This document shows positions 6,762 through 33,695 of a DNA stretch of 64,000 nucleotides, in pieces. The position numbers and the translations under genes were made by a program. The notes under the pieces were generated by a model, which saw only the letters and a list, made by a program, of their open reading frames with translations, searched no databases and was not told the origin of the DNA. Each line of letters begins with the position of its first letter. The stretch's first letter is position 1. The stretch spans positions 11,554 through 75,553 of the forward strand of contig CAKOQD010000002.1 of assembly GCA_934101185.1 (NCBI GenBank), read 5' to 3'. The DNA is from an uncultured Bacilli bacterium. GTDB taxonomy: Bacteria > Bacillota_I > Bacilli_A > RF39 > UBA660.

Positions 6762-6831
6762 CAAAAAATATTTAAAAAACAAAAGAAAAATAGTATAATT
6801 AACTTATAAAAAAATAAAGGAAGTGATCAAT

Positions 6832-9169: not shown

Positions 9170-9207
9170 GCACTATTTTTTAGTGTCTTTTATTTTAGGA
9201 GGAATAT

Positions 9208-11325: not shown

Positions 11326-11450
11326 TCTTTTCTTTTTTTGTAAACAAAATGTAAACAAACGTAAAAAACACATGTAAAATATACATTTTTTTCATTTTTA
11401 TTAAGGAATCCTATAATAATATGCGTTCAATATATACGAGAGGTGATAAA

Positions 11451-12638: not shown

Positions 12639-12639
12639 A

Positions 12640-13616: not shown

Positions 13617-13669
13617 CCTATTTTTTGTATGAAAAAATATAAAAAAACCATAATAAAAATGGTGATAAA

Positions 13670-14113
13670 ATGAAACAAGAAAACTATGAAAAAATAGTAA
13701 AAACAAATCTACCAGATGAAAATAAACTGTCCAATGCCTTAATAGCTTTCTCAGTTGGAGGACTAATCGGAGCATTCGGGAACTTCCTAATAGAAATATA
13801 TTCATATCTATTTGAAATATCAAGAAACGACTCAGCAGTATTTATGATTATAACCCTCATCTTTATTGCATGCCTCTTAACAGCCATCGGAGTATTTGAT
13901 ACCTTTGTAAAAACAGGAAGAATGGGTCTTATAATACCAATAACAGGATTCGCACACTCTATGCAAAGTGCAATACTAGACTATAAAAACGAAGGTTTAA
14001 TCTATGGATTTGGTTCAAACATCTTTAAATTAGCGGGCTCAGTAATTCTATATGGAGTAGTATCATCATACTTCTTTGCTCTTATAAGATTCCTACTAGG
14101 AGTCGCCCTATGA
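13670..14113 (+). CDS. spoVAC: Stage V sporulation protein AC
   Basis: 147 aa. NALIAFSVGGLIGAFGN and a 4-TM pattern typical of SpoVAC. Confidence 0.88.
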   Translation: MKQENYEKIVKTNLPDENKLSNALIAFSVGGLIGAFGNFLIEIYSYLFEISRNDSAVFMIITLIFIACLLTAIGVFDTFVKTGRMGLIIPITGFAHSMQSAILDYKNEGLIYGFGSNIFKLAGSVILYGVVSSYFFALIRFLLGVAL

Positions 14114-15105
14114 CATTTGAATTTAATAACGTATACATAAAAAACACCTCAACAATATCAGGACCAATCGAAGCAAAAGGACCACTAAATAAATACTTTG
14201 ATAAGACTTATAAAGACTTTTATATAAATAGTAAATCATTAGAAAAATCAGAAGTAAACCTTCAAAAAGAAAGCATAGAAACTCTAATAGATAAAGAAAA
14301 TATTACAAAAGAACAAATAGATATATTAATATCCGGAGACTTACAAAATCAAATAACAGCATCATCATATGCAGCAAAAGACTATGAAATACCATTCATC
14401 GGAGTCTATAGTGCCTGTGCAACATCAACACAGTCAATAATACTTGCATCAACTATTCTAGAAAGCAAAAAAGCAAAAAACATTATATGTACAACAAGTT
14501 CAAATAACCTAGTATCAGAAAAACAATTTAGAAATCCAGTAGAATATGGTGCACCAAGTCCTAAAACAAAAACATTCACATCAACCGGAGGAGCATCAAT
14601 ACTATTAACAAATGAAAAAACAAATATAAAAATAACATCTGGTACAATAGGAAAAATAATAGATCTAAACCAAAATGATCCAAACCATATGGGAGCAGTA
14701 ATGGCACCAGCTGCCGCAGATACAATATATAATCATTTAAAAAACAACAATGAAAAAGTAAGCGATTATGATCTAATCCTAACCGGAGACCTAGGAATAT
14801 ATGGAAAAAAGATACTAAAAGAATACATGGACCAAAAATACAAGATAAAACTAGGGGAGAACTATGATGACTGTGGAACAATGCTATATGACATAAAAAA
14901 CCAAAAAGAAATAACCGCTGGGGGATCAGGACCAGTCTGTAGTGCCTTAGTAACCTATGGATACATATACAACGAAATGAAAAATAAAAATCTAAAAAAA
15001 GTTTTATTCGTAGCAACCGGTGCACTATTCTCACCAACATTCATATATCAAAAACAAAACATTCTATCAATTGCCCATGCAATAACAATGGAGGTGGTAA
15101 AATGA
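14110..15105 (+). CDS. spoVAD: Stage V sporulation protein AD
   Basis: 331 aa thiolase-like fold. STISGPIEAKGPL near the N-terminus. Translationally coupled to its neighbours. Confidence 0.88.
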   Translation: MTFEFNNVYIKNTSTISGPIEAKGPLNKYFDKTYKDFYINSKSLEKSEVNLQKESIETLIDKENITKEQIDILISGDLQNQITASSYAAKDYEIPFIGVYSACATSTQSIILASTILESKKAKNIICTTSSNNLVSEKQFRNPVEYGAPSPKTKTFTSTGGASILLTNEKTNIKITSGTIGKIIDLNQNDPNHMGAVMAPAAADTIYNHLKNNNEKVSDYDLILTGDLGIYGKKILKEYMDQKYKIKLGENYDDCGTMLYDIKNQKEITAGGSGPVCSALVTYGYIYNEMKNKNLKKVLFVATGALFSPTFIYQKQNILSIAHAITMEVVK

Positions 15106-15452
15106 GTTATATAACATCATTTCTATTCGTAGGGATACTATCTCTAATAGCACAATTAATATTAGATAAAACCAAACTATCCGCAGGACACATTACCAGC
15201 ATGTTCGTAGTAATAGGCTCATTCCTAGACACATTTAGTATATATGATAAAATAATACAACATGTTGGCGGAGGGGCACTAGTACCAATAACAAGCTTTG
15301 GTCATTTACTAATACATGGCGCACTAGAAAGAACCAATCAATCCGGTGCAACAGGTATCTTAATGGGAATGTTTGACCTTACTGCAACAGGAATAACAAG
15401 CGCAATTATCTTTAGTTTTGTATTTGCACTTATATTTAAACCAAGAAACTAA
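15102..15452 (+). CDS. spoVAE: Stage V sporulation protein AE (AEB-type)
   Basis: 116-aa membrane protein, FLFVGILSLIAQLILDKTKLSAGHI. Confidence 0.85.
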   Translation: MSYITSFLFVGILSLIAQLILDKTKLSAGHITSMFVVIGSFLDTFSIYDKIIQHVGGGALVPITSFGHLLIHGALERTNQSGATGILMGMFDLTATGITSAIIFSFVFALIFKPRN

Positions 15453-15525
15453 AAATAACGCAAGTTATTTTTTCTTTGTAATAACAAGAAAATATGATAT
15501 AATTATACATGTTAAAGGTGATTAT

Positions 15526-16242
15526 ATGGAGTATAATTTTAAAATAAACGATTTCGAAGGACCACTTGATTTACTATTACACTTAATAAAAGAACAAGAT
15601 ATGGATATTATGAACATTGAAATAGTAAAATTAACAGACCAATATTTAGACTTCATAGATAATATGAAAGAAAAAAATCTAAACATTGCATCAGAATATC
15701 TAATACTTGCATCAGAATTAATGTACATCAAATCGAAAAGTCTCCTTCCAAATATAAAAGATGAAGAAGAACAAGAAGAACTAACAGAACTAAAAGAAAA
15801 CTTAATAAATAGATTATTAGAATATGAGCAATATAAAAAAATAACCCAAGACTTCAAAGAACTCGAAGAACAAAGACATGAATTCTATACTAAGTCTCCA
15901 TCTAATCTAAAAGAATATATTGATCCCAAACAACAACTATCTGATGATATAACACTCGAAGACTTATTAAAAGCATTTCAAAACTACTTAAAAAGACAAC
16001 AAATAAAAAAACCAATTACTACCAAAATAACAACAAAAGAAATATCAATCGAAGAAAGAACAAAATCTATAAAAAATATCTTAAAAACAAAAAGAAAAGT
16101 AGAATTCTTTGATCTATTCGAAGATATATCAAAACCATATGTAGTAGTAACATTTCTTTCAATCTTAGAAATGGCAAAAAATAATGAACTAAAAATAACA
16201 CAAGAAAATAACTTTGATAAAATATACTGTGAGGTGGCGTAA
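15526..16242 (+). CDS. scpA: Segregation and condensation protein A
   Basis: FEGPLDLLLHLIKEQDMDI N-terminus. ATG at 15526 is used rather than the in-frame upstream track start. Confidence 0.9.
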   Translation: MEYNFKINDFEGPLDLLLHLIKEQDMDIMNIEIVKLTDQYLDFIDNMKEKNLNIASEYLILASELMYIKSKSLLPNIKDEEEQEELTELKENLINRLLEYEQYKKITQDFKELEEQRHEFYTKSPSNLKEYIDPKQQLSDDITLEDLLKAFQNYLKRQQIKKPITTKITTKEISIEERTKSIKNILKTKRKVEFFDLFEDISKPYVVVTFLSILEMAKNNELKITQENNFDKIYCEVA

Positions 16243-16805
16243 TGAAATCAGTACTTGAAGGACTACTATTTATAACCGGAGATGAAGGATTAACAATTAA
16301 AGAGATAAGCGAAGTCCTAGAAATAGAACAAGATGATGCACTTGAACTAATAAACGAACTAAAACAAGACTACTCAAATGAAGAAAGAGGAATAATGATC
16401 CAAGACTTTGCAGGAAAATATAAACTAACTACAAAAAAAGAACATAAAACCTACTATGAAAAACTATCGGAACTATCAAGCAATAAAACACTTTCACAAT
16501 CAGCACTTGAAACACTAGCAATAATAGCATATAACCAACCTATAACTCGTTTAGAAATAGATGAATTAAGAGGAATCCAATCAAGTCAAATGATTAGAAA
16601 CCTAATATCAAGAGACTTAGTAAAAGAAGTAGGAAGAAAAGATGCAGTAGGGAAACCAAGACTATATGCCGTAACAGATGAGTTTTTAGACTATTTTGGA
16701 TTAACATCATTAAATGAACTCCCTACAATAGAAGTAGAAGAATCAGATGACGTTGAACTATATAATTCAAAATACAAAGAAGAGGAAGAAATAGAACAAC
16801 TATAA
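16242..16805 (+). CDS. scpB: Segregation and condensation protein B
   Basis: LEGLLFITGDEGL and ALETLAIIAYNQPITRLEIDELRG motifs. Coupled to scpA. Confidence 0.9.
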   Translation: MKSVLEGLLFITGDEGLTIKEISEVLEIEQDDALELINELKQDYSNEERGIMIQDFAGKYKLTTKKEHKTYYEKLSELSSNKTLSQSALETLAIIAYNQPITRLEIDELRGIQSSQMIRNLISRDLVKEVGRKDAVGKPRLYAVTDEFLDYFGLTSLNELPTIEVEESDDVELYNSKYKEEEEIEQL

Positions 16806-16904
16806 TTTTCTACTTTTTAATGAACAAATCTTCAAAAGATGTGATATAATAAATATATCTTATCTTGAAAAAAGGCAAGAAATAGAACAATTATAGTTCT
16901 TTAT

Positions 16905-16991
16905 GCCTGCGTGGCGGAATTGGTAGACGCGCTGGACTCAAAATCCAGTGGTAGCAATATCGTGTGGGTTCGAGTCCCACCGCAGGCACCA
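16905..16991 (+). tRNA. tRNA-Leu, anticodon CAA, with encoded CCA
   Basis: Hand-folded cloverleaf. Acceptor gcctgcg/cgcaggc, D-arm gcgg-aattggtaga-cgc, anticodon stem ctgga/tccag with loop ctCAAaa, long variable arm, T-arm gtggg-ttcgagt-cccac, discriminator A plus CCA. Confidence 0.9.
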
Positions 16992-17002
16992 TTGACGAAT
17001 CT

Positions 17003-17057
17003 GTTCGAACTATTCGAACTTTGATATATATAATCAATCGAAAGATTGGTTTTTTTC
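17003..17057 (+). terminator. Two stem-loops downstream of tRNA-Leu, the second with a T-run
   Basis: gttcgaa-cta-ttcgaac hairpin, then atcaatc-gaaa-gattggt followed by T7. Confidence 0.55.
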
Positions 17058-17094
17058 TGTTTTCAGGAAGAAATCATAGGAAAGGTTGGTGTCT

Positions 17095-17370
17095 ATGATT
17101 AATGTAATCAAAAAAGAAATTGATATGGAGAAATCTTTAAAGAAACGATTAGAGATTATATGTGATTTTTGTAATACTACTCCAACTATTATAAATGGTA
17201 GTATTCGTAAAATTGATAAGACAAATTTGAATTATATCGAACCACATAGAATAATTATCAATAACATAATGTTTCTTGCTTTTAATTATTCTAATGAAAT
17301 CTATATCAATAATTTAAGCAAAAAGATTAAAATATCAGAACTTGAAAACTACATAAAAACTATGAACTAA
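17095..17370 (+). CDS. Small orphan protein, island paralog family A (copy 1)
   Basis: 91 aa. RBS aggaaagg. 65 of 90 residues identical (hand alignment, no gaps) to the ORF at 19220..19492. Confidence 0.6.
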   Translation: MINVIKKEIDMEKSLKKRLEIICDFCNTTPTIINGSIRKIDKTNLNYIEPHRIIINNIMFLAFNYSNEIYINNLSKKIKISELENYIKTMN

Positions 17371-17704
17371 TACTTATTCCCTACAAATAGGTAATAGACA
17401 AAATAAGAAAAATGTTGTATTATGTAATTGATTTACAAAGACTTATTTTGAGAAGTAAAAGTATTAGTTTGTAGTACCCTTACTTCTCTTTTTTTGAAAA
17501 TTAGAAAAAGGGAGATGATAATTAATGTATGATGATGTAAAGAAGATACTTTTAACGAATTAAAAGATAAATACAATTTTAGCAAAGAACACGATGATAA
17601 AGGAAAAGATGATTTTAAGATAGAAATTTAATTAAAAATGTTGATTTTATTAAAAAAATAATGTATAATAGTAAGTCCTTAACAGATTGGGGGGGAAATT
17701 TATC

Positions 17705-19012
17705 ATGTTAAAAGAAAAAAAATCAGTGTTTTTGATTTATGATAAAAAAATAGCACCACGTTTCAATAAGTTATTATCTGAAAATTTAGAAATTGAAACT
17801 GAACTTGAAGATTATGGATGTAATAAACTTGTTTCAGTTTCGGTTGAAGATTATCAAAGAGCTTTAGAGGAAGGTCTCAACATTTCAAATCTAAATCATT
17901 GGGATATGAGTTGGGTAAATGCTTATAAAGAGCCAAGACCAGTTGGATATATTAATGTAATGTATAGTAGTTTACCAAAAACAAGAGAAGCCAGTTCTTT
18001 ATGGGAATCATTTGAATTACCTGATCATTGTCCTATTGATATTAAAGAATATATTGAGAAATTACAAGCATTTTTAGGTGGACGCCCTATAAAAATTAAA
18101 TACAATAGTTCTGATAATGCAATAGAGTTTTTAGTTAAAGGTTCATTAGAAGATTATGAACTTGTAAAACAACAATGTGAAGGATTTAATTATGTTATGA
18201 AAAATTCACCTTTTATTAAAACTACATTTTTAGAAAAAGATGGAACTTTAATTAGAACTGAAAAAGAAGAGAAAAAAGAAGAATCAAGCCTTAAATCTTA
18301 TTTTAATGAATCTATGTTTGTGGATGGTTTATTAAGACCAGAAGGTTCTAATATTGCACCAAAAACAGATACTGACCAAGATTTAACAACAGGTTATAAA
18401 TATAATAGTTGTAGATTTGGTGCTAGAGATTTTGATATCAGTTCTGTTGGGATTTATGATTTGACAGAAAGTATTCAAGGAACATTCCTTATTTATGAAG
18501 AAAAAGATTATAATCACTATTGGAATAATGAAAAAGATGAACAAACGAGTTGTAAATCAATAATGCCTTTCACTATGCTAGATAATGGTAGTTTTGAAAG
18601 TAAAGTTACTATTCAAGATGGAGAAACAGTAGTAGTAAACACAAGTGTAAATGTTATTAGAAATATAGTCGGTTGTAATTTTGATGGTAAGAGTGTAAGA
18701 GATGGATTGTTTTCTGGACTTGCACATGAAGATTGTAGAGGTAATTTTGAATTAAACGAATATTATAAAACAATTTCTAATAGAACAAGATTACTTCATT
18801 ATTCTAAATCTTCTGGTTTCTTTGAGGTGTATGAATTGCCTAATGGATGGGTTGTTGAAGATGGAATCTCAAAGTTAGAATATCCAAAGGTATTTGATGA
18901 TGTAGATTTTGATAAGCAAGATAAGGATCTAGAAGAAATTAATGGTATTTTAGCATCACGAACTAATAGCAAAATTATGTCTTTAGTTAAAAGAATTGAT
19001 AATAGCAAGTAA
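17705..19012 (+). CDS. Orphan 435-aa protein, no recognisable domain
   Basis: Long uninterrupted ORF with island-type codon usage. ATG at 17705 is 9 nt after a G7 tract that acts as the Shine-Dalgarno. Strong terminator follows. Confidence 0.7.
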   Translation: MLKEKKSVFLIYDKKIAPRFNKLLSENLEIETELEDYGCNKLVSVSVEDYQRALEEGLNISNLNHWDMSWVNAYKEPRPVGYINVMYSSLPKTREASSLWESFELPDHCPIDIKEYIEKLQAFLGGRPIKIKYNSSDNAIEFLVKGSLEDYELVKQQCEGFNYVMKNSPFIKTTFLEKDGTLIRTEKEEKKEESSLKSYFNESMFVDGLLRPEGSNIAPKTDTDQDLTTGYKYNSCRFGARDFDISSVGIYDLTESIQGTFLIYEEKDYNHYWNNEKDEQTSCKSIMPFTMLDNGSFESKVTIQDGETVVVNTSVNVIRNIVGCNFDGKSVRDGLFSGLAHEDCRGNFELNEYYKTISNRTRLLHYSKSSGFFEVYELPNGWVVEDGISKLEYPKVFDDVDFDKQDKDLEEINGILASRTNSKIMSLVKRIDNSK

Positions 19013-19032
19013 AAATTTGCTATTATTTTTTT
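19002..19032 (+). terminator. Intrinsic terminator after the 435-aa orphan
   Basis: atagcaa / ttgctat stem overlapping the stop codon, followed by a T-run. Confidence 0.7.
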
Positions 19033-19040
19033 AAATTTTA

Positions 19041-19190
19041 TGGTAATATATATTTAGTGATTGATTCTTATATCAATCGTTGCGGTAAAAAGTTGTAGAT
19101 AACTACGACAATGGCACCATTGGGAAATCTGCTCGAACTATTCGAACTTTAAATATATGAATCAATCAGAAATGATTGATTTTTTCGTTT
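19041..19190 (+). repeat. tRNA-acceptor-end-like element, copy 2 (promoter, hairpin, minihelix ending GGCACCA, hairpin, terminator)
   Basis: TGgTAATAT extended -10. gattgat-tcttat-atcaatc hairpin. gttgtag-ataa-ctacgac hairpin then aatGGCACCA (19113-19119). Downstream is alignable by eye to the region after tRNA-Leu. Confidence 0.6.
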
Positions 19191-19219
19191 CTTGAAAAAA
19201 TCATAGAAAGGATTTGTCT

Positions 19220-19492
19220 ATGGTAAATATTATTAAAGAAGAAATTGAAATTGAAGAATCTTTAGAATCGAGGTTAAGAGTAATATGTGATTTTTGTAAT
19301 ACTACTCCAACAATAATAAATGGTAGTATTAGAAGAATTGATAAAACTAATTTAACTTATATTGAACCACATAGAATATATATTAAAAACAATTTATATC
19401 TAGCATTTAATTATTCAAGTGATATATATGTTAATAATTTAGGTAAAAAGATTAAATTATCTGAATTAGAAGATTATATAAAATGTTTATAA
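19220..19492 (+). CDS. Small orphan protein, island paralog family A (copy 2)
   Basis: 90 aa. RBS agaaagga. Shares the invariant core ICDFCNTTPTIINGSIR-IDKTNL-YIEPHRI with 17095..17370. Confidence 0.6.
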   Translation: MVNIIKEEIEIEESLESRLRVICDFCNTTPTIINGSIRRIDKTNLTYIEPHRIYIKNNLYLAFNYSSDIYVNNLGKKIKLSELEDYIKCL

Positions 19493-19498
19493 AATACC

Positions 19499-19526
19499 TT
19501 GATTTTTAGAATTAATAGTATATAAT
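19499..19526 (+). promoter_or_regulatory. Sigma-A type promoter upstream of the recombinase-remnant leader
   Basis: TTGATT, 16 nt, TATAAT. Confidence 0.45.
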
Positions 19527-19575
19527 AAATAACCAATAAATGAGGAAGGTATCTTCTAGAAATGGAGGTACATCA

Positions 19576-19656
19576 ATGATAAGACAGAATATACATTTAT
19601 TAAAAATATTTATTATTGAATTAACTAGAGAGCGAGAGGTATTAGCTTGGATTTAA
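19576..19656 (+). CDS. Possible 26-aa leader peptide overlapping a terminator stem
   Basis: RBS aatggagg 7 nt before the ATG. The ORF runs into the 5' arm and loop of the 19627-19677 terminator. Confidence 0.3.
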   Translation: MIRQNIHLLKIFIIELTREREVLAWI

Positions 19657-19677
19657 TATCTTTTGCTCTCTTTTTTC
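19627..19677 (+). terminator. Strand-specific 17-bp stem-loop plus T-run (attenuator-like)
   Basis: agagagcgagaggtatt pairs fully with aatatcttttgctctct only if three G-U pairs are allowed, so as + strand RNA only. Followed by T5. Confidence 0.6.
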
Positions 19678-19699
19678 GTATTAAAAGGAGGAATATGTT

Positions 19700-20212
19700 A
19701 TGAATGAAGAAAAGAAAATAGCGGGTTTATATACGTGTATTAACGGAAGATCAGGCACGAGAAGGATTTAGTTTACCAGAACAAGAAAAGCGTTTAAGGA
19801 CTATGATGAGTTAAAAAAGAATTATAATAAACAAAGACAAAAAATAAATAAACTTAATAATCAGACAAAGGACTTAAATACAAAATCAGAAGAAATAAAA
19901 GATATTATTAATAATTTAAAAAATGAGAATTCTATATTAAAAGAAAAGAATAAAACTCTTCAAAATGAACTAAATAATCTAAAAGAATTATTTGAAAAAA
20001 TTAAAAATAAAATTAACAATCTATATCACTTCTTTGTAGATAAAATGTGGGGTAATAAAGAAAAATGTGATAAATATTATCCAGTTGCTTATGAATTATA
20101 TGGTAAGAATATTTTAGAAGAAGAACAAATAAGAGGTATATTAGGAACTAAAAATAGATTTGCAGAAATAGATAGAGATTCTAAATCAAAAGACGATGAT
20201 TTTGAATTATAA
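19700..20212 (+). pseudogene. Remnant of a large serine recombinase: frameshifted N-terminus with mutated catalytic Ser, internal deletion, C-terminal coiled-coil fragment
   Basis: Frame 0 gives MNEEKKIAG... then a stop at 19769. The +1 frame gives YIRVLTEDQAREGFSLPEQEKRLR (Y-x-R-V-S-T-x-x-Q motif with Ser replaced by Leu) then a stop at 19812. Frame 0 resumes as a start-less Asn/Lys/Leu-rich coiled-coil ending at 20212. Confidence 0.7.
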
Positions 20213-20249
20213 AAAAAGAGGAATAATATCCTCATAGTTAAATATAAGA

Positions 20250-20483
20250 TTATTCCTTAACATATCCAATGTTACTAGGTTTGCTTGGATCAAATGTTAA
20301 GTTGCAAATACTAGCAACAAGACCATAAATTCCAAAAGTAACAATTGTAAGGAAAAAATATGCTGCAGTTCTACTTCTATATCCTTCAGGTTTTAAATTA
20401 GTATGATTAATAATTATACTACCAATCCATCCTAAAAAGAATGTTAACAAAAATCTTACTACATTATTATTGTCTTTTTCCAT
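20250..20483 (-). CDS. Small two-TM membrane protein, TM2-domain-like
   Basis: 77 aa. FLLTFFLGWIGSIIINH and FFLTIVTFGIYGLVASI hydrophobic helices. Confidence 0.5.
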   Translation of the reverse strand: MEKDNNNVVRFLLTFFLGWIGSIIINHTNLKPEGYRSRTAAYFFLTIVTFGIYGLVASICNLTFDPSKPSNIGYVKE

Positions 20484-20555
20484 ATTACACTTACTCCTTC
20501 CAATTATAATTATACAATAAATTTTTATAAAAGTCTTTAATTAATGACAATTTTA

Positions 20556-20680
20556 TGATAATATTTATATAGATTGATTCATATGAATCGTTATTGCCGA
20601 AAAAAGTTGTAGACCTCTACGTCGTCGGCACCAGATTGATTGATAACTCGAACTTTTTATAGTTCGAGTTTTGATATATC
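20556..20680 (+). repeat. tRNA-acceptor-end-like element, copy 3
   Basis: TGaTAATAT extended -10. gattc-atat-gaatc hairpin. tgccga...tcggca stem enclosing the gttgtaga/tctacg hairpin and ending GGCACCA (20627-20633). Then a perfect 10-bp hairpin aactcgaact/agttcgagtt and TTTGATATAT. Confidence 0.6.
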
Positions 20681-20792
20681 TAAATTTATAATAAAATATT
20701 CATATAGATAAATTGAATTGAATCAATTTAGAAAACATACTTGCATAATGACTTAACCATTATGCAAATATATTGAAATATGGAGGAAATTT

Positions 20793-21323
20793 ATGAACGA
20801 AAAAATGTATTATTATTTATTAGAAAATAAACTATTAACGCATGGGATTGGAAATGTTAGTGACCAGGAAACATATTTTAAATTTGAATCAATAATCAAA
20901 AATGGTGGTCTAATGTCATTACAAAAATTAAAAGAATTAGGAATAAATGTATCTGGAAAAGTTAGTGGATTAAGAGATACACCTGAAAGTAGAATATCTT
21001 TTTTTAATCCATCCACCCCACAAATTAAAAAGAGATTATTATCAGAACACTTTTATTATTTTCTACCATTTAATCCTAACGTAATATTTTTTATAATTGA
21101 TGGAACAAATATTGATTTACAACAACATTCTGATATTTCTTTTGAAATAACTACAGAAAGTGGGTTTGTTTCTATTGATAATTTTAAAGGAATAATAGCT
21201 CCAAGCGAATGCATTGAATATATAAATAGTATTCAGAATAAGTATGGAATTTGTTTACCAATATATGATTTTGATTTTAATATGATGAATGATATAAATG
21301 ATAGTTTTAATAAATATAAATAA
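20793..21323 (+). CDS. Orphan 176-aa protein, possibly a distant paralog of 24904..25752
   Basis: RBS tggagga. Shares by eye the SIIKNGGL / EIVKNGLI block and the C-terminal ES-x-hydrophobic ... G-I-(I/L) block with the 282-aa ORF. Confidence 0.55.
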   Translation: MNEKMYYYLLENKLLTHGIGNVSDQETYFKFESIIKNGGLMSLQKLKELGINVSGKVSGLRDTPESRISFFNPSTPQIKKRLLSEHFYYFLPFNPNVIFFIIDGTNIDLQQHSDISFEITTESGFVSIDNFKGIIAPSECIEYINSIQNKYGICLPIYDFDFNMMNDINDSFNKYK

Positions 21324-21325
21324 TC

Positions 21326-21432
21326 AGAAGTTGTTCTACTTCTTCCTTTAGGGCACCATAGGAAAATTAGTCGAACTAATCGACTTTATATATGAAAGGT
21401 TAATCCTCGGTTAACCTTTCATATATGTTTTG
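21326..21432 (+). repeat. tRNA-acceptor-end-like element, copy 4, plus a 16-bp perfect-stem terminator
   Basis: agaagt-tgttct-acttct hairpin, tttagGGCACCA (21352-21358), agtcga-actaa-tcgact hairpin, TTATATATG, then atatatgaaaggttaa / ttaacctttcatatat stem. Confidence 0.6.
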
Positions 21433-21598
21433 AAAGAAGCTGATTAGTTATGCAAATAATAAAGGAAAAACTAGTATATATGAAACTGGTTTAATACGAA
21501 AATCTTCATATATTGCAATGGTTTTTAAAAAGAATAATAAAGAATAATATTGAAACACTAGATGAATTATTTAGATTAGACCCATTGCCATATGTAAT

Positions 21599-21627
21599 TT
21601 GCATTAAATATAAAATTGTGCTATAAT
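21599..21627 (+). promoter_or_regulatory. Sigma-A promoter with extended -10 driving the T-box leader
   Basis: TTGCAT, 17 nt, TGcTATAAT. Confidence 0.6.
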
Positions 21628-21633
21628 TTGTTC

Positions 21634-21892
21634 ATCGGCAATGACTAGGAATAGTAATTTTATAATTTATTTTAGAGAGTTATCGGTTGGTGAAAGATAA
21701 TATAAATTAAAAATGAAAGACACCTATGAGCTACTTGTTTGAAATTAATAGTAGAATAAGTCGGATGTAAACCGTTATCTCATTGAGTGATTATATATTT
21801 AATTTCTGTTTACATATATAATAAATTGGGTGGTACCGCGGATTATAACAGTTATTCGTCCCTTTGTGGATAATATAACTGTTTTTTATTAT
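21634..21892 (+). promoter_or_regulatory. T-box riboswitch leader, probable Asp (GAC) specifier
   Basis: AGAGAG bulge and GGTTGGTGAAAG distal loop in stem I. GAA-A-GAC-A in the specifier-loop position (GAC at 21719-21721). T-box sequence AATTGGGTGGTACCGCG (about 21824-21840). Terminator aacagttat...ataactgtt followed by T6. Confidence 0.8.
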
Positions 21893-21914
21893 ATATTGAA
21901 TAGGAGGAAGAAAA

Positions 21915-23228
21915 ATGAAAAAAATATATTTTAAAAATTTAAATGAATATTTTGGACAAGAAATAACTATTGAAGGTTTTGTCGATAATATTCGTGATTT
22001 ACAATATGTTCAATTTTTAATTGTTAGAGACACTACAGGTAAGGTTCAAGTAACAATTGAAAAAAACGAAAATAATAGTAAATTAAATGAAATTGTTTCT
22101 AATTTAGCAATTGAAAGCACGGTTAAAATTATTGGAACATTATTTAAAAATGAGAAAGTTAAACTTAATGGAATGGAGCTAATACCAAACGATATATTTG
22201 TAACTAGTAAATGTTTGGAGGAATTACCTTTAAACTATAAAGATAGCAAGTCCGCACTATTGGATACTAGATTAAATTATAGATTTTTAGATTTAAGAAG
22301 TGAAAAAAATATTCTTATGTTTAAAGTTCAAACTTGTATGATTAATGCTATGAGAGAATTTGTTATAAAAAATAATTTTACAGAGATCCACACTCCTAAA
22401 ATTATTAGTGTAGCAAGTGAATCTGGCGCAGAAGTTTTTGAAGTAAAATACTTTGATAGAAAAGCATATTTAGCACAAAGTCCTCAATTTTATAAACAAA
22501 TGGCTATGTGTAGTGGTTTTGAAAAGGTATTTGAAATTGCACCAGCATTCAGAGCAGAAAACTCTAATTCATATAGACACACTACAGACTTTACATCATT
22601 CGATATTGAGATGAGTTATATCGAATCTTTAGAAGAACTTATGGATTTTGAAGAAGATTTATTTATTGCGGGGTTATCCGCAGTTAAAGAAAAATATGGG
22701 GAACAAATCAAAGAATTATTTAATGTAGATGTTATTATTCCTACTAAACCATTCCCAAGAATTAAGTTAGAAGAATTATATAAGGAATTAGAAAAAGAAT
22801 ATGATTTTAAAATGAATTATGAAGATGTTGGAGATATGAATGCAGAATCAGAGAGATTAGCATCTAAGTATGTTATGGAAAAATATGGGCATGAGTTTGT
22901 ATTTATAACAGACTTTAGTGCTAAAAAAAGAGCGTTCTATCATAAGAGAGAAAAAGGTATTCCACAAGGGGCTGACCTTATTTGGAAAGGCTGTGAAACA
23001 ACTACTTTAGCATTAAGAGAACATAACTATGAAACTTTATGTGAACAAGCTAAAGAAAAGGGATTAGGAGAAGATGTTAAGTTTTATCTTGAATTCTTTA
23101 AATATGGTTGTCCCCCTCATGGAGGATTTGCTCTTGGAGTAGATAGAATAACTATGCTATTATTAGAAACAGGTTCTTTAAAAGAAACAATGTTTATATT
23201 TAGAGGTCCTAGTAGAATAGAACCATAA
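21915..23228 (+). CDS. aspS: Aspartyl-tRNA synthetase, short archaeal/eukaryal-like type (AspRS2)
   Basis: 437 aa. OB-fold N-terminus. Class IIb motifs FRAENSNSYRHTTDFTSFDIEM and PPHGGFALGVDR. C-terminal FRGPSRIEP resembles the archaeal-type FPRD-x-x-R-L-x-P tail. The T-box specifier GAC agrees. Confidence 0.8.
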   Translation: MKKIYFKNLNEYFGQEITIEGFVDNIRDLQYVQFLIVRDTTGKVQVTIEKNENNSKLNEIVSNLAIESTVKIIGTLFKNEKVKLNGMELIPNDIFVTSKCLEELPLNYKDSKSALLDTRLNYRFLDLRSEKNILMFKVQTCMINAMREFVIKNNFTEIHTPKIISVASESGAEVFEVKYFDRKAYLAQSPQFYKQMAMCSGFEKVFEIAPAFRAENSNSYRHTTDFTSFDIEMSYIESLEELMDFEEDLFIAGLSAVKEKYGEQIKELFNVDVIIPTKPFPRIKLEELYKELEKEYDFKMNYEDVGDMNAESERLASKYVMEKYGHEFVFITDFSAKKRAFYHKREKGIPQGADLIWKGCETTTLALREHNYETLCEQAKEKGLGEDVKFYLEFFKYGCPPHGGFALGVDRITMLLLETGSLKETMFIFRGPSRIEP

Positions 23229-23232
23229 AATT

Positions 23233-23254
23233 AAGGGGACAAAATCCTCTTTTT
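23233..23254 (+). terminator. Terminator after aspS
   Basis: aagggga / tcctctt stem (one G-U pair) followed by a T-run. Confidence 0.5.
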
Positions 23255-23255
23255 G

Positions 23256-23408
23256 TGTTATAATTGTATTAGTTGATAGTTATTACTAACTATTTCTTTT
23301 GCTCTAGAAGTTGTTCTACTTCTTCCATTAGAGTACCAGTTTAAAAATAAACTCGGACTTTTAAAGTTCCGAGAGTAATAAATTACTAACAGAAATGTTA
23401 GTTTTTTT
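23256..23408 (+). repeat. tRNA-acceptor-end-like element, copy 5
   Basis: TGtTATAAT extended -10. gctcta...tagagt stem enclosing agaagt-tgttct-acttct and ending AGTACCA (23332-23338). ctcgga/tccgag hairpin. ctaaca-gaaa-tgttag followed by T7. Confidence 0.6.
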
Positions 23409-23508
23409 GCTGTTTAAAAGAAAATGAAAAATTATATGTTAGCAATAGAAATAAAAATAGTAATTTATTAAGATTAATGATATGATTTAATAAACAAGGA
23501 GGTTACAA

Positions 23509-24822
23509 ATGAAAAATTTAAATAGTGAATTACTTAATAAATTTGACAATTTATATAAAAAAGATAAAAATAATAAAATAATAGAAAATGCAATTAAAAA
23601 TGTAGGTATCAATAAAGTTTGCTTAAACAATGAAATAGTTAACAAAACAATAAATATTTTTAATATAGAACTGCCAAAATCAAAAATATATAATCAAGAA
23701 GAATCAGAACGCTGTTGGATACATGCAGGTATAAATTTAATAAAAAATAATATTGCTAAAAACCTTAACATTGAAGAAAGTGAATATGCTTTATCTGTAA
23801 ACTTTTTAGCTTTTCTAGATAAGATGGAAAAATCTAATACTATTTATAACAGAATTATAGAAAATAATAATTTTAACTATGAAGAAGAAATTAAAAAAGA
23901 ATATTTAAAATTTGGTATATACGAAGGTGGATATTTTGAGTATTTTAAAGCACTAGTAAATAAATATGGAATTGTTCCAGAAAATGTTATGCCGGATGTT
24001 GAATGCAGTAAGAAATCTGAAGAATTAACCAAAATTCTTAGTGATAAAGTAAAAAAAGATATATTAAAACTAATTAAATTAAAAAAAGAAAAATGTAATA
24101 ATTTAGACGTTATAAAAGAAGAAATGCTAACAGAAAACTATAATATGTTAGCAAAATGTTTAGGAGAGCTACCTTTTAATTTTGATTATGAATATAAAAC
24201 TAAAGATGGAAAATATAAAAAAATCACTAATATAACTCCTAAAGAATTCTCAAACAATTATCTCACTATTAACTTAAATGATTTTATTGGTGTTGCTAAT
24301 GTACCAATGTACAACAAAGAATATAATAAGCTATATAGAAAAGAGCATACTGAAAATGTATATGAAAATAGTTATGTTGAATTCATTAATTTACCAATTG
24401 AAAATTTAAAAGATTTAGCGATTAAACAATTAAAAGATGGGGTTCCTGTATGCTTAGGTTGTGATATGAAAAAAATGCGAGCAGATAAATTAGGAATAAT
24501 GGATTCTAATTTATACAATTATAAAGATACATTTAATATTGAGCTATTATCCAAAGAAGAAGCATTATCCATACATGATATCGATTTTCAACATGTAATG
24601 TTAATTACTGGAGTTCATATTGAAGATGACAAAGCAGTTAGATGGAAAATTGAAGACAGTTATGGTGATAAAGTTCATAAAGATGGTTATTATATAATGA
24701 ATGATAACTTCTTTGATGATTTTGTAATAGAAGTCATAATTGATAAGAAACACTTAAGCCAAGATCAATTAGATATATTAAGCCAAGATCCAATTTTATT
24801 TGATGTAACTGAACCATTCTAA
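23509..24822 (+). CDS. pepC: Aminopeptidase C (C1B bleomycin-hydrolase family cysteine peptidase)
   Basis: 437 aa. Active-site context QEESERCWIHAGINL and a conserved C-terminal region. Confidence 0.8.
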   Translation: MKNLNSELLNKFDNLYKKDKNNKIIENAIKNVGINKVCLNNEIVNKTINIFNIELPKSKIYNQEESERCWIHAGINLIKNNIAKNLNIEESEYALSVNFLAFLDKMEKSNTIYNRIIENNNFNYEEEIKKEYLKFGIYEGGYFEYFKALVNKYGIVPENVMPDVECSKKSEELTKILSDKVKKDILKLIKLKKEKCNNLDVIKEEMLTENYNMLAKCLGELPFNFDYEYKTKDGKYKKITNITPKEFSNNYLTINLNDFIGVANVPMYNKEYNKLYRKEHTENVYENSYVEFINLPIENLKDLAIKQLKDGVPVCLGCDMKKMRADKLGIMDSNLYNYKDTFNIELLSKEEALSIHDIDFQHVMLITGVHIEDDKAVRWKIEDSYGDKVHKDGYYIMNDNFFDDFVIEVIIDKKHLSQDQLDILSQDPILFDVTEPF

Positions 24823-24903
24823 CAAAAAACTTAGTAAAGAACATTACCATTTAACACTAAAAATAAAAATGATATAATAGTTGCAAGATGTAGGAGGCTA
24901 ATT

Positions 24904-25752
24904 ATGAATAAAAATGATTACATAGAAATAACAGAAGAAAAATTAAAAGACAATTCTAAAAAGATTATGATAAATCAAATAAATAAATATTACAAATCAA
25001 AAGAATATGTAAATCCCAAATGTAAATATTCTGTTGGAGACAATGTAGTTTTAAAAAAAGGAACATTATTACATGGAACATATAAAAATATTGATGGATT
25101 AAAAGAAATTGTAAAGAATGGATTAATATCAAGTTGGTTTATAAATGATAGATTATCAAAATATCCAAGTTCTGTTGGTGTATGGAAATTAAAAAAAGAT
25201 TCCTTACTAAAAGACTATATAAATTTTTATTCTGGAGGCACTATTTTATATAGTGGTATTATTGAAAATGGTATAGACACACAAAAAAATAAGACCTCAG
25301 TTATTCCATATGATGAAATGCATAATATTATTGATATTACAAGCAGTATTAATTGTCATATGTGGACTCTAGAACAAACAAAAGAAGCAAGATTTATGCC
25401 TAGTTTTGTTCAAGATAGAATTCAAATAGGTATTATATTTAATGGAGACAATAACTACACAAAAGAATTACTGAAGGGCGACATATTAGAACCTGATTTT
25501 ATTGATGATGAAAATGTTAAGAATTTCGTTAATTCAAATTACTACGACAAATTTTTAAAAGATAGAAAAAACAAAGACGATTTCTTTACTGATCGAGAAA
25601 GTGCTATTTTATTTGGGTTACCATCGAACTTAATCGAAGGAATACTAGTTGGAAGAATATATGAAAAAGATGACTTAATTTTAAAAGAAATAAAAGAATT
25701 ATTACCAAAATGTTATATATGTAACCTAGATGGAAAAATAATAAAAGAATAA
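24904..25752 (+). CDS. Orphan 282-aa protein with weak ADP-ribosyltransferase-like motifs
   Basis: RBS taggaggc. LLHGTYKNIDGLKEIVKNGLIS near the N-terminal third and DRESAILFGLPSNLIEGILVG near the C-terminus. No firm family assignment. Confidence 0.55.
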   Translation: MNKNDYIEITEEKLKDNSKKIMINQINKYYKSKEYVNPKCKYSVGDNVVLKKGTLLHGTYKNIDGLKEIVKNGLISSWFINDRLSKYPSSVGVWKLKKDSLLKDYINFYSGGTILYSGIIENGIDTQKNKTSVIPYDEMHNIIDITSSINCHMWTLEQTKEARFMPSFVQDRIQIGIIFNGDNNYTKELLKGDILEPDFIDDENVKNFVNSNYYDKFLKDRKNKDDFFTDRESAILFGLPSNLIEGILVGRIYEKDDLILKEIKELLPKCYICNLDGKIIKE

Positions 25753-25789
25753 AAAACGTAAGATATGGAATTTTTTAGATGGTGATAAA

Positions 25790-26350
25790 ATGAAAAAACA
25801 TGTAAAAGTAATGTTTGGAACAACAAGCGGTGCAAAAAACAATTTTAATTATAAAATAGGTGAAGTAAATATCAGTGATAATTGGAATCCTAATGCTAGT
25901 ACTGGAAAAGAATTTGGAGGTTTTAATTATTGTAGTGAAGACTGTATTTTAAGATGGTTGCACAGGGGAGATACTATATATGATGTAGAAATTCCTAAAG
26001 ATGCTGAAAACATTAAAATAGAAGGTGCTACAACACTCTATAGAACTAATAAAATCATTATACAAAATCCAAAAAAGATAGATGATGAGTTAGCACTTCA
26101 TTTCTATAAAATATCAAAAATACCAGAAAAATCCTATTATATATCACTAGCAGTTGTCTCACTAATGAACTACAAAAAAACTGCATATCAGATATTGAAA
26201 GATAAAGTTAACAAAGAAAATATTGATTCAGTACTAGAAGATTGGAACGATTTTATGTGGCACAAAGGTAAAAATGATAGAAGAAATAAAAATGAACTAA
26301 TAAAAAAAATAGAAGATGAGTTATATAAAATAAAAAACATTAAGCTATAA
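25790..26350 (+). CDS. Orphan 186-aa protein
   Basis: RBS gatggtga. The block GGFNYCSEDCILRWLHRGDTIYDVEIP resembles a domain common in phage and island hypothetical proteins. Function unknown. Confidence 0.55.
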   Translation: MKKHVKVMFGTTSGAKNNFNYKIGEVNISDNWNPNASTGKEFGGFNYCSEDCILRWLHRGDTIYDVEIPKDAENIKIEGATTLYRTNKIIIQNPKKIDDELALHFYKISKIPEKSYYISLAVVSLMNYKKTAYQILKDKVNKENIDSVLEDWNDFMWHKGKNDRRNKNELIKKIEDELYKIKNIKL

Positions 26351-26603
26351 AAAATTAATAAAAATAAAAAAGACAATATAAAATCATCTTTTTTTACACA
26401 AATATACTTACAAACATCTATTGTTTTTATATTATTAGTCATTAACTTTTAACTAAGTATATACAAATTAAATCTAAAAATATCACTAAAAATCATAAAA
26501 ATATTCAATGAATTTATATCTTTCTTGTCTTTGTACCTAACACAAAAAGCAACTATTAACATTAAAAGAATAACATGATATAATGAAAACGGAGGAAACG
26601 ATT

Positions 26604-27188
26604 ATGATTATAGGTATATGTGGTAATTCCGGAAGTGGCAAGACTACTTTAGCCAATCAAATAATAAAATCAACAGACAATAAAGCAATACATCTAGAAA
26701 TAGATAAAATTGGTCATAAAGTTTTATTGCTTCCTGAAGTAAAAAAAGAATTGATAAAACTATATGGAAACAAAATACTAAGTGAAAGCGATATCGATAG
26801 AAAAAAACTAAGCACAATAGTTTTTGATTCTAAAATAGAAATGGATAAACTAACTGATATTACATGGAAATATATGCAAATAGAAATTGACAACTTTCTA
26901 GAAAATAATAAAAATAAAATAGTAATCTTAGATTGGATGTTATTATCAAAATCAAAATATTTTGACATGTGTGATATAAAAATACTTTTAAATACACCAT
27001 ACGATATAAGAAAAAGAAGAGCAACAAGAAGAGATAACATAAGTGAAGAATCATTTAACTTAAGAGATCAGGCTAGTATAACTTACAATGAAGAGAACTT
27101 TGATTATGTTTTAAAAACTAATGAAATTGACAAGAAAAAGCTAGTAAAGTCTCTGTACAAAAGTCGAAAACAAAGGAAAAATAAATGA
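26604..27188 (+). CDS. coaE: Dephospho-CoA kinase-like P-loop kinase
   Basis: IIGICGNSGSGKTTLA P-loop. The layout after it resembles CoaE (IDRKKLSTIVFDS). ATG at 26604 follows the RBS ggagg. Confidence 0.6.
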   Translation: MIIGICGNSGSGKTTLANQIIKSTDNKAIHLEIDKIGHKVLLLPEVKKELIKLYGNKILSESDIDRKKLSTIVFDSKIEMDKLTDITWKYMQIEIDNFLENNKNKIVILDWMLLSKSKYFDMCDIKILLNTPYDIRKRRATRRDNISEESFNLRDQASITYNEENFDYVLKTNEIDKKKLVKSLYKSRKQRKNK

Positions 27189-27661
27189 AACAAGTATTAG
27201 ACTATTTAGAAACCAAAAACATAAAATATGAAATAATTCATCATAAACCTGCGATGACAACTGAAGAAGCAGATAAATATATCGAAGGAAAAGAAGGAGT
27301 TCGTTCAAAAACTATATTTATGACAAATAAAAAAGATAAAAAGTTTTATCTAATTATAATGGACGACTCTAAAAGATTAGATATAAAAAAGATGAATGAA
27401 CTAACAAATGATAAACTCCACTTTGCAAAAGAAGAACAACTAAAAGAAAAACTAGGATTAAAAACAGGAACAGTATCAATATTTGGACTAATAAATAATA
27501 AAGATCATGATATTAACATCTATATAGATAAAGATATAATAAACGAAAAACTAATAACATTTCACCCAAATGATAACACCGCAACTATCTTTATAACCCT
27601 ACAAGATATGTTTAAAATACTAAATGATTTAGATTACTCTTATGAAATAATAAAACTATAA
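27185..27661 (+). CDS. YbaK/ProX-type aminoacyl-tRNA editing (deacylase) domain protein
   Basis: 158 aa. KTIFMTNKKDKKFYLIIMDDSKRLDIKKM and TGTVSIFGL blocks typical of the YbaK/ProX family. Confidence 0.65.
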   Translation: MKQVLDYLETKNIKYEIIHHKPAMTTEEADKYIEGKEGVRSKTIFMTNKKDKKFYLIIMDDSKRLDIKKMNELTNDKLHFAKEEQLKEKLGLKTGTVSIFGLINNKDHDINIYIDKDIINEKLITFHPNDNTATIFITLQDMFKILNDLDYSYEIIKL

Positions 27662-27668
27662 AACACTT

Positions 27669-28307
27669 TTATTCAGGAAAATAAAGCAACTTTATTTTCT
27701 TGTTTTTTATTTCAATAAGACCCTCATCCTTAAGATTCTTAAGCTCTCTACTCATTGCACTCCTGTCAATTGCTAAATAATCAGCAAGAGCAGTAAAAGA
27801 AGAAGGAACATACACAATTCTAGCATTTGTATCCATATAAGAATACTTAAAATAAGAAAGAAGTTTATTTCTAATAGTCTTATTAGTCAAAATATCAACT
27901 CTTTCATTATTTGAAGTCAACTTCTTTTGAGTAATCTCTAATAAATTAATCAAAAACTGACTAAAAATTGAAGAATTAATATTAGCATTACTATATATAT
28001 AAGCAGTATCAATAAAAATAACCAAAGACTCTTCCTTAGCAATAACATCATAATCACTATTAACTAAATTAGATATATTAGTTCCGAAAACATCCCCCTC
28101 ATCAAGCACCTCAACTAAAGACCTATTACCAGCACTATCAGTCTTTATAATATTAAGATAACCAGTCTTTACAATTGCAATATAATTATTCATTTTAATC
28201 TTACTTGACACTAACTCATTTACACTAAAATGTAAACTAGAAGCCTCCAACATTTTTAATAAAAATCCCTGTTTACTAGGGTGAATTCCTTTGAATAAAT
28301 CGTTCAT
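27669..28307 (-). CDS. Crp/Fnr family transcriptional regulator
   Basis: 212 aa. cNMP-binding-like N-terminal domain and C-terminal HTH (LADYLAIDRSAMSRELKNL). Confidence 0.8.
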   Translation of the reverse strand: MNDLFKGIHPSKQGFLLKMLEASSLHFSVNELVSSKIKMNNYIAIVKTGYLNIIKTDSAGNRSLVEVLDEGDVFGTNISNLVNSDYDVIAKEESLVIFIDTAYIYSNANINSSIFSQFLINLLEITQKKLTSNNERVDILTNKTIRNKLLSYFKYSYMDTNARIVYVPSSFTALADYLAIDRSAMSRELKNLKDEGLIEIKNKKIKLLYFPE

Positions 28308-28346
28308 AATATCCCTCCCAAAAATATTTTAACATTATTTTTAAAA

Positions 28347-28362
28347 TGTTGCAATTGCAACA
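28347..28362. promoter_or_regulatory. 16-bp perfect palindrome TGTTGCAATTGCAACA, candidate operator
   Basis: Perfect dyad in the 113-nt divergent intergenic region between the Crp/Fnr gene and nrdD. Confidence 0.45.
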
Positions 28363-28420
28363 ATAACAATTTTCGACAAAATTATATAATTAAAATGTAA
28401 AAAAATAGGAGGAGTAAAAA

Positions 28421-33673: not shown

Positions 33674-33695
33674 AATGAAACAAGAAAGGATTAAT

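Follow-up and report, generated by a model that had tools for sequence, protein, structure and literature searches.

A tandem array of cassette-like units behind tRNA-Leu(CAA) in an uncultured Bacilli bacterium and its probable relation to serine-recombinase elements

Layout and composition of the array

The DNA analysed here, referred to as the window, comprises 64,000 nucleotides (nt) of contig CAKOQD010000002.1 (positions 11,554 to 75,553 of the forward strand, GenBank assembly GCA_934101185.1) from an uncultured Bacilli bacterium. Its sole tRNA gene, tRNA-Leu(CAA), was located by ARAGORN and Rfam (63 bits) and is followed by a block of accessory genes arranged as five successive units, U1 to U5 (Table 1). 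The present analysis concerns these units, the short junctions between them, and a family of intact elements encoding a large serine recombinase (LSR) and a small protein, here termed A, to which at least two of the units are homologous.

The 3′ end of the tRNA, GGCACCA at 16985 (junction J0), recurs at 19113 (J1), 20627 (J2) and 21352 (J3), and in the degenerate form AGTACCA at 23332 (J4). Four plus-strand copies of GGCACCA within 4.4 kb compare with 0.8 expected per whole window, and none of 100 shuffles reached the observed count. Each copy sits between gene modules and has a similar environment. On its 3′ side follow about 12 nt, a small TCGAAC hairpin, an A/T stretch and a terminator hairpin; on its 5′ side stand a TGnTAtAAT-like motif, about 60 nt away, and a small hairpin immediately preceding CACCA.

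The units differ in how much of an element they retain. U1 has kept an A gene and both ends, U3 and U5 have kept only the ends. In a repeat comparison the left ends of U1 and U2, including A1 and A2, were 78-89% identical in DNA, and the first 125 nt or so of U4 (21352-21475) can be aligned closely with the left end and the A gene start of an intact element (locus L024) described below. Judged by these homologies, U2 and U4, at least, are decayed elements of the LSR type. The array as a whole preserves J0 to J4, and its mobility genes are reduced to relics of 37 codons (LSR) and 138 codons (Mob); no other recombinase domain was found in the open reading frames (ORFs) of the block with Pfam and NCBIfam. 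A strong terminator-like hairpin with a 19-bp stem (19627-19671) separates A2 from the recombinase relic. Intact relatives have A and LSR next to each other, and given this hairpin the two genes may be separately controlled. The least certain part of the array is the right end of U5, which is placed tentatively at a doubtful relic near 26533; the region 26480-26560 aligns weakly to J3, J4 and a junction of a distant species (L056). By this relic coaE falls outside the array, yet it lies inside the strain-variable region.

The cargo of U4 includes an aspartyl-tRNA synthetase (AspRS), a non-discriminating enzyme of archaeal type, which is preceded by a T-box leader matching all 219 positions of the RF00230 model. 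The leader has GAC (Asp) at the specifier position, in agreement with the amino acid of the enzyme, as is required of a T-box-regulated synthetase. This second AspRS with its Asp T-box and the aminopeptidase PepC may be of some benefit to the host. For A1, B441, TM77, C176, D282, E186 and the ORF of a further unit found in other strains (U1′), nothing usable was obtained from Pfam, NCBIfam, PADLOC and PHROGs, and no defence role can be claimed for the orphans from PADLOC and the other family searches. Look-ups of the exact AspRS and B441 proteins returned the same context only, with no sign of U4 or U1 at other tRNA genes.

Table 1. Features of the tRNA-Leu(CAA) locus in window coordinates
Feature	Coordinates	Strand	Description
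tRNA-Leu(CAA)	16905..16991	+	GGCACCA (16985-16991) is the integration point, J0
U1	16992..19119	+	2128 bp; W-type left end, A1, B441; ends in GGCACCA (J1)
U1 left end	17003-17019 (hairpin)	+	W-type; about 12 nt, hairpin GTTCGAActaTTCGAAC, then terminator hairpin
A1	17095-17370	+	91 amino acids (aa); in U1
B441	17705-19012	+	Orphan, 435 aa; in U1
U1 right end	19040-19119	+	TGnTAATAT promoter-like motif, hairpin GTTGTAGATAACTACGAC, GGCACCA (J1)
U2	19120..20633	+	1514 bp; evidently a deletion derivative of a mobilizable element; W-type left end
A2	19220-19492	+	72% identical to A1; in U2
LSR remnant	19702-19812		In U2; about 37 codons; 2-nt deletion; RVS changed to RVL (catalytic Ser to Leu)
Mob_Pre relaxase remnant	19799-20212		In U2; final 138 codons, fused to the LSR remnant at microhomology
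Membrane protein TM77	20250-20483	-	77 aa, weak DUF4234; in U2
U2 right end	20555-20633	+	Terminates in GGCACCA (J2)
U3	20634..21358	+	725 bp; G-type left end GATTGATTGATAACTCGAAC...GTTCGAGTTTT; C176; X-type right end
C176	20793-21323	+	Orphan; in U3
U3 right end	21352-21358 (GGCACCA)	+	X-type, AGAAGTTGTTCTACTTCTTCCTTTAGGGCACCA; J3
U4	21359..23338	+	1980 bp; relic of an L-type element; T-box/AspRS cargo
U4 left end	21359-21425	+	L-type
L-type A gene start	21450-21494		In U4; first 8 codons, MQIIKEKL...
T-box(Asp) leader	21632-21866	+	RF00230, 145.7 bits; in U4
AspRS	21915-23228	+	437 aa; in U4
Terminator	23233-23251	+	3′ of AspRS, in U4
U4 right end	23332-23338 (AGTACCA)	+	X-type; J4
U5	23339..26538	+	About 3.2 kb; G-type-like left end; PepC, D282, E186
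PepC	23509-24822	+	Pfam Peptidase_C1_2; in U5
D282	24904-25752	+	Orphan; in U5
E186	25790-26350	+	Orphan; in U5
U5 right end	26505-26538	+	...CTTTCTTGTCTTTGTACCT; degenerate X-type, tentative
coaE	26583..27188	+	Dephospho-CoA kinase, TIGR00152, 78 bits; intermediate A-T skew

A preliminary description of this DNA had proposed an accessory island of about 9.4 kb, beginning exactly at the tRNA 3′ end and ending near 26400, in which almost every module had its own promoter and terminator. The left boundary is exact, between 16991 and 16992, and the accessory character of the block is supported; the single island has to be replaced by a tandem array of at least five separately gained units. Its right end lies close to the proposed position, at about 26538 by junction relic and composition, and some haplotypes additionally lack coaE, to 27184. 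As had been described, the block holds a T-box-controlled AspRS (NF003483, 447 bits; T-box, 145.7 bits) and PepC (Peptidase_C1_2, E = 3e-115). A dead serine-recombinase remnant is likewise present, but it consists of only about 37 codons (19702-19812) fused to the end of a Mob_Pre relaxase. Several of the five ORFs taken as orphans are indeed without a family match, whereas 17095-17370 and 19220-19492 are paralogues from a large family. With respect to expression signals, terminator-like sites are enriched (6 versus 1.3), whereas a generic promoter scan made in this AT-rich DNA stayed at chance level (84 versus 79.7 expected).

The abrupt switch of codon usage reported in the same description was borne out by computation. 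In sliding windows the GC skew changes from about -0.05 to between +0.2 and +0.3 across 17000-26000 and the AT skew from about 0.3 to about 0.1 within the block; both return to background near 26000-27000, and the G+C content is nearly flat across the block. The third-position skew (A-T)/(A+T) was 0.37 ± 0.10 and (G-C)/(G+C) was -0.48 ± 0.19 for 45 plus-strand genes outside the block; for the eight genes in 17095-26350 the A-T skew ranged between -0.17 and +0.11 (z between -5.1 and -2.5). Genes inside and outside differ in both measures (Mann-Whitney, p = 6.8e-8 for A-T skew and p = 5.4e-5 for G-C skew), and ATA, CTA, TTC, AAC and GAC, which had been named as preferred by the flanking genes, are rarer inside the block. 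Native minus-strand genes outside the block (n = 5) have the mirrored bias, e.g. a sense A-T skew of -0.58 for the gene at 49165-50100; the bias is therefore mutational and strand-linked.

From the tRNA outward the A-T skew amounts to -0.17 for A1, -0.07 for B441, -0.02 for A2, -0.03 for C176, 0.03 for AspRS, 0.02 for PepC, 0.11 for D282, 0.10 for E186 and 0.22 for coaE, compared with 0.37 for native genes. U1 is thus the unit with the most atypical codon skew, and U5 (0.02-0.11) is nearer to native values. A skew increasing away from the tRNA is the order expected if the newest insertions adjoin the tRNA and older units have been exposed longer to the host bias. The foreign look of the genes would then be due to their short exposure to the strong strand-specific mutation bias of the host genome.

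Throughout the window, plus-strand genes have A3 of about 0.55 against T3 of about 0.25, and C3 exceeds G3. This extreme strand-linked third-position bias points to a mutational asymmetry that is unusually strong for a Firmicute. The sole other plus-strand gene with an island-like skew (-0.04) is an orphan ORF of 469 aa at 51414-52823 with no Pfam match, which is separated from a preceding sigma-factor gene by about 500 nt of non-coding DNA (region 50900-52823).

Strain haplotypes and related species

Strain haplotypes of the window's species were collected as human gut metagenome contigs encoding identical ScpB or ProX. Contigs from other samples match 6242-19187 and 18441-30483 at 100% identity, and single contigs run from A1 to PepC. 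The arrangement of the window is thus reproduced by independent contigs and is not a chimera or an assembly artefact.

Other haplotypes differ from the window by the presence or absence of units. In L001, which is without U1 and U2, the CCA of the tRNA is joined to 20634; homology reaches to 16991 and resumes at 20627, and only GGCACCA is common to the two breakpoints (J0/J2). U1 alone is absent at J0/J1 from L002, L102 and L105, and in L003 and L101 it is replaced between J0 and J1 by a 688-bp unit (U1′) with an ORF of 132 aa and the same kind of junction. L105 is additionally without U3 and U4, 20656 being joined to 23351 (J2/J4). A larger deletion is found in L002, L102 and L106-L108, which are without U1 and without 20691-27184, hence also without coaE; here the tRNA and U2 are followed by about 100 nt of unique sequence from J2 and then by the proX ATG at 27185. 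In L002 the ProX and Crp proteins encoded at 9536-10658 (window 27185-28307) are 92% identical to those of the window, and the adjacent NrdD is 99% identical. These divergent proteins suggest recombination or replacement at the edge of the island.

A fuller version of U2 is present in L103/L092, where it consists of A, an LSR pseudogene, a Mob_Pre gene of 380 aa and a 77-aa gene, the shared part being 99.9% identical to the window. Compared with this version, U2 of the window has lost about 2.8 kb, from about codon 37 of LSR to about codon 243 of Mob, at a short microhomology. Copies of U2 are also located behind tmRNA, tRNA-Leu(TAG) and tRNA-Arg(TCT). The contig of L103/L092 (ERZ4561932 NODE_306) joins smpB-tmRNA and the fuller U2-type element to U3-U5-coaE-proX at 99.9% identity; this joint reflects either a genuine rearrangement involving two copies of the element or a jump of the assembly across the repeat. 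A second variable spot of the window lies at 33675-35150, where an ORF of 491 aa with a C-terminal GNAT acetyltransferase domain is located; L091 and L093 contain it, and L002, L102 and the sister species L012 are without 33686-35147.

About 60 related species from this uncultured Bacilli lineage, labelled in the records as Bacilli, Tenericutes, Ca. Onthousia or CAG:582, share the order scpA-scpB-tRNA-Leu(CAA). The block itself is not conserved, in line with its first description as accessory: the genes after the tRNA differ in nearly all of these species, and in a more distant one (L033) crp-nrdDG is located directly 3′ of the tRNA. The counterpart of 21596-23274, comprising T-box and AspRS, is 95.8% identical in the sister species L012 (97% at the protein level) compared with 80% for core DNA, which indicates a recent transfer between species. 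In L012 a further decayed element start comes after the AspRS unit, at 14703-14750: 15 initial codons of a W-type A gene (MINVIKQEVKTEEHL), ending in a stop. The distant species L056 has a cassette array of its own behind tRNA-Leu(CAA), at 10680-13873, with CCA-type junctions at about 11680, 13020 and 13768. One of its cassettes encodes a homologue of E186 (50% identical) and is closed by an X-type right end as in U3 and U4 of the window. Since the block is accessory, it would be wrong to assign the second AspRS and PepC to the core metabolism of this uncultured gut lineage.

On the other side of the tRNA, scpAB is adjoined at 11421-15452 by sporulation genes (SpoIIAA-like STAS, sigma factor, spoVAC/AD/AE), to which L104 adds yabP/yqfD. 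Such genes are unexpected for a mollicute, and some records label the lineage Tenericutes or Mollicutes.

Intact elements and putative attachment sites

The intact element of L024, 6.2 kb long, is also located behind tRNA-Leu(CAA). It encodes an A homologue, an LSR of 599 aa (Resolvase 1e-36, Recombinase 7e-20, Zn_ribbon_recom), a Mob_Pre relaxase (9e-32) and three further ORFs; in its annotation no other recombinase, including no tyrosine recombinase, was found. Its right end, ...CTATGGCACCA, is followed by a terminator-type flank. Intact elements are 5.3-9.2 kb long, with one exception of 3.1 kb, and contain 5-7 ORFs, so that a parent type of 5-9 kb can be described. From the tRNA outward it consists of a left end that contains a small hairpin with TCGAAC and a terminator, A, LSR, a MobV/Mob_Pre relaxase, a few cargo genes, and a right end with a promoter-like motif, a small hairpin and ...C-A/T-CCA. 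The Mob_Pre relaxase is present in L024 and L103, and no matches to genes of the type IV secretion system kind were obtained in the intact elements. By gene content, with an own putative integrase gene, an own relaxase without conjugation pore genes and a target flanked by attachment (att) sites, these relatives would be classed as integrative and mobilizable elements (IMEs).

To survey the targets, the L024 recombinase was used as bait in metagenome contigs, and full-length homologues were found in about 50 loci. An upstream RNA gene could be identified at 29 loci, and at all of them the A-LSR module begins right after CCA in constant orientation, and the A gene starts at a constant distance of about 92 nt from CCA. 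The hosts are tRNA-Leu (four anticodons, among them CAA, TAG and GAG), Thr, Lys, Phe, His, Cys, Arg (three anticodons), Glu, Asn, Gly and tmRNA; in total, the target range includes at least 15 kinds of tRNA gene in addition to tmRNA. LSRs 95% identical to one another are found behind different tRNAs, and A is located beside LSR in every locus recovered with the LSR bait. In annotated phage and plasmid collections this LSR has no close relative, the identity to any LSR there being at most about 35%.

Right junctions were found for 18 elements and read ...C(A/T)CCA whatever the acceptor sequence of the host tRNA. This independence of the right ends from the host acceptor places the exchange within the last five bases. 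In the three related elements for which both ends are known, the base before CCA is the host discriminator in every case, A in L130 and T in L128 (tRNA-Cys) and L145 (tRNA-Gly). The right end is CACCA where the target has A73, and CTCCA at the two U73 targets for which it is known, and the core thus co-varies with the discriminator base (CA, CT, CT; three of three elements, one subfamily). The LSR therefore probably cuts at positions 72-73, as far as these few cases allow. Joining right and left ends gave reconstructed attP sites of CGACAATGG-CA-CCATTGACG for U1 and CACTATGG-CA-CCATAGGG for L024, near-palindromes centred on the CA before CCA. They resemble the attP of serine recombinases, which is expected to have dyad symmetry around a non-palindromic 2-bp core identical to that of attB. 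The right-end hairpin together with CACCA was also considered as a tRNA-like minihelix RNA and rejected: the pairing is clear in J2 (TGCCGA/TCGGCA) and is not kept in J1, L012, L030 and L117.

The A protein of 91 aa has a confident AlphaFold2 model (pLDDT 90.6). In comparisons with PDB and BFVD this model had no significant neighbour (best E = 0.66 and 0.04, respectively), so that the fold gave no clue to function. Its family comprises 831 clusters at 50% identity, many of them truncated. Each element type carries an inverted repeat of 11-13 nt, of which there are three unrelated sequence versions. One arm, 36-45 nt in from the left end, is the 5′ arm of the terminator; the other follows closely on the promoter-like motif, 47-62 nt in from the right end. 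This repeat may be a protein site or an RNA antiterminator allowing expression of A and LSR only from the circular form; RNA folding supported an antiterminator for the W-type attP transcript, not for the L-type.

Taken together, the block is best regarded, with good though not complete confidence, as a stack of at least five small mobile elements or cassettes derived from them, formed by repeated site-specific insertion at the CCA end of tRNA-Leu(CAA). The following course of events is proposed. In recombination by the LSR, the end of a tRNA or tmRNA gene would be the partner of a palindromic attP (e.g. TATGG-CA-CCATA). The exchange would take place within or just before discriminator and CCA, so that the tRNA would stay intact and the element would start right after CCA. 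Each newcomer would insert beside the tRNA and displace older units outward, and units would decay by internal deletion, in which A, LSR and relaxase are lost and junctions and cargo are kept. The array of the window, being without a working recombinase or relaxase, is probably immobile unless a related element supplies LSR in trans.

In the W, L and G types of the module after CCA, TCGAAC is located at +13 to +20 and mirrors GTTCGA of the T-loop. Insertion might regenerate a usable target in this way, which would explain the accretion and would not be standard behaviour of an LSR. More generally, we consider that the chances are about even for the following broader proposal. For an LSR clade always paired with the 91-aa A, nearly any tRNA or tmRNA gene would offer an att site in its conserved end (T-loop ... 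C72-N73-CCA), TCGAAC at 13-20 nt after CCA in the left end would regenerate the target, and tRNA genes of small-genome gut Bacilli would become growing integron-like arrays. The subterminal inverted repeat and outward promoter may activate A and LSR only in the circle. This would be the first known serine-integrase family specifying tRNA genes.

Alternative explanations and comparison with known systems

Several points weigh against insertion by an LSR. The recombination mechanism is derived from comparative anatomy, and the crossover was assigned from three elements of one subfamily. Canonical LSRs recombine attP with attB only, and insertion beside an occupied tRNA (attL) is non-standard; accretion would need either a permissive enzyme or a target regenerated by the left end of the element. 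U3 and U5 contain no recombinase or A-gene relic, so that their LSR origin is deduced from the junction types, and the right end of U5 is a weak relic. The G-type left end may be the native terminator of tRNA-Leu and not an element end. Several LSR copies in the window's species are pseudogenes, as in L103. Finally, a common haplotype has a deletion through coaE without a recognisable junction, from which it follows that other recombination processes are also active here.

Such processes might account for the whole pattern if units were swapped only by homologous recombination, e.g. after transformation or conjugation, between conserved flanks or post-tRNA terminator modules, CACCA being part of regulatory modules. 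The left-end modules of U1 and U2, with their 79-89% identity over about 380 nt, could allow exchange and the gain or loss of U1, L002 replaces 20691-27184 without a recognisable right junction, and the same haplotype has an unusually divergent proX and crp (92% compared with 99% for nrdD). We nevertheless regard homologous recombination as an unlikely sole cause, because the breakpoints of L001 and L105 share no more than 7 nt, identical element ends are found behind at least 15 unrelated tRNA genes whose flanks share only CCA, and the elements carry a full LSR and an attP that is palindromic around the junction. An integron was rejected on account of the missing intI, of junctions that are mimics of tRNA ends, and of promoter-like motifs carried by the units.

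A classical tRNA island of a tyrosine integrase whose gene was lost, with direct repeats as copies of the tRNA 3′ end, would fit the direct repeats flanking the units and the common use of tRNA-Leu 3′ ends as targets, e.g. by NBU1 and streptococcal Tyr_1 elements (PMC5357655, PMC5704250). This origin is nonetheless very improbable: the repeat is only 5-7 nt long, compared with usually at least 15 nt in such islands, the upstream hairpin is not the T-arm of a tRNA, no tyrosine integrase was found in the block or in the fully annotated intact L024 element, LSR stands beside A at every bait-recovered locus, and the window itself retains an LSR remnant. There is hardly more to be said for native DNA whose deviating composition has an internal cause, such as a recent inversion with respect to replication or a different level of expression. 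The third-position bias of the block does lie between those of native plus- and minus-strand genes, as it would in a recently inverted segment, but strains with identical ScpB differ in the units that they have, the AspRS unit is almost unchanged in a species with an 80% identical core, and related species hold different genes at the site. With stepwise insertion at the tRNA end as the preferred explanation, the compositional anomaly is accounted for: the block is dispensable, recently acquired DNA.

Clostridium acetobutylicum has an extra, non-discriminating AspRS of archaeal type, about 430 aa long, behind a T-box leader. The cassette described here differs in that its specifier is GAC (Asp) and not Asn, that no gatCAB or asnB is linked to it, and that the gene is cargo of a mobile element. 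The composite islands of the staphylococcal cassette chromosome (SCC) at the 3′ end of rlmH (orfX) are alike in being driven by LSRs (CcrAB), in leaving the target gene active, and in consisting of stacked elements and recombinase-less pseudo-elements parted by short direct repeats. SCC recombinases also accept more than the canonical pair of attP and attB. Target gene, recombinase lineage and cargo are different, and the elements here have a single recombinase with A instead of a ccrA/ccrB pair, and a relaxase.

The mobilisable transposons Tn4451 and Tn4453 encode the LSR TnpX and the Mob_Pre protein TnpZ, and move by way of a circular intermediate, with a 2-bp core as the place of exchange. 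These clostridial elements of about 6 kb share the backbone of LSR and MobV-family relaxase without own conjugation genes (PMC5704250). Tn4451 has a low target specificity and inserts within genes, in contrast to the precise insertion after CCA and the constant A gene found here. The domain architecture agrees, but the LSR is at most about 35% identical to any LSR of the plasmid and phage collections.

According to the paper on Islander, serine recombinases were not known to target tRNA genes (PMC4383910), and a review of IMEs states that those with serine recombinases insert inside genes (PMC5704250). Our literature search gave no report of serine recombinases targeting tRNA genes, which is not proof of absence. 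If the LSR is the integrase, this element family would break both rules, and would do so at many tRNAs. It would then represent a new class for the detection of tRNA islands, for which current tools seek tyrosine integrases and longer tRNA fragments. Moreover, it would provide a natural LSR reading a conserved multi-copy target, relevant to integrase-based genome engineering in bacteria, and a tractable case of cassette arrays forming without an integron.

NBU1 of Bacteroides is likewise mobilizable, has its own relaxase and is located at the 3′ end of tRNA-Leu (PMC5704250); it differs by its tyrosine integrase IntN1, a 14-bp common core, a single target and another host phylum. The closest parallel in process is the accretion of IMEs and cis-mobilizable elements (CIMEs) at the 3′ ends of tRNA and housekeeping genes in Firmicutes, as for ICESt1/CIME and IME_Sag2603_tRNAlys (PMC5704250). 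Site-specific integration at the 3′ end, loss of integration and transfer genes with retention of att, and arrival of the next element beside the target gene are common to both. The described tRNA cases involve tyrosine integrases and longer blocks of identity (PMC5704250, PMC5357655), whereas here LSR is the sole recombinase, the shared core is 5-7 nt, and one element type is found at many tRNAs. Tandem accretion at tRNA 3′ ends is thus already known for tyrosine integrases, and the part of interest is the family of LSR elements at tRNA ends.

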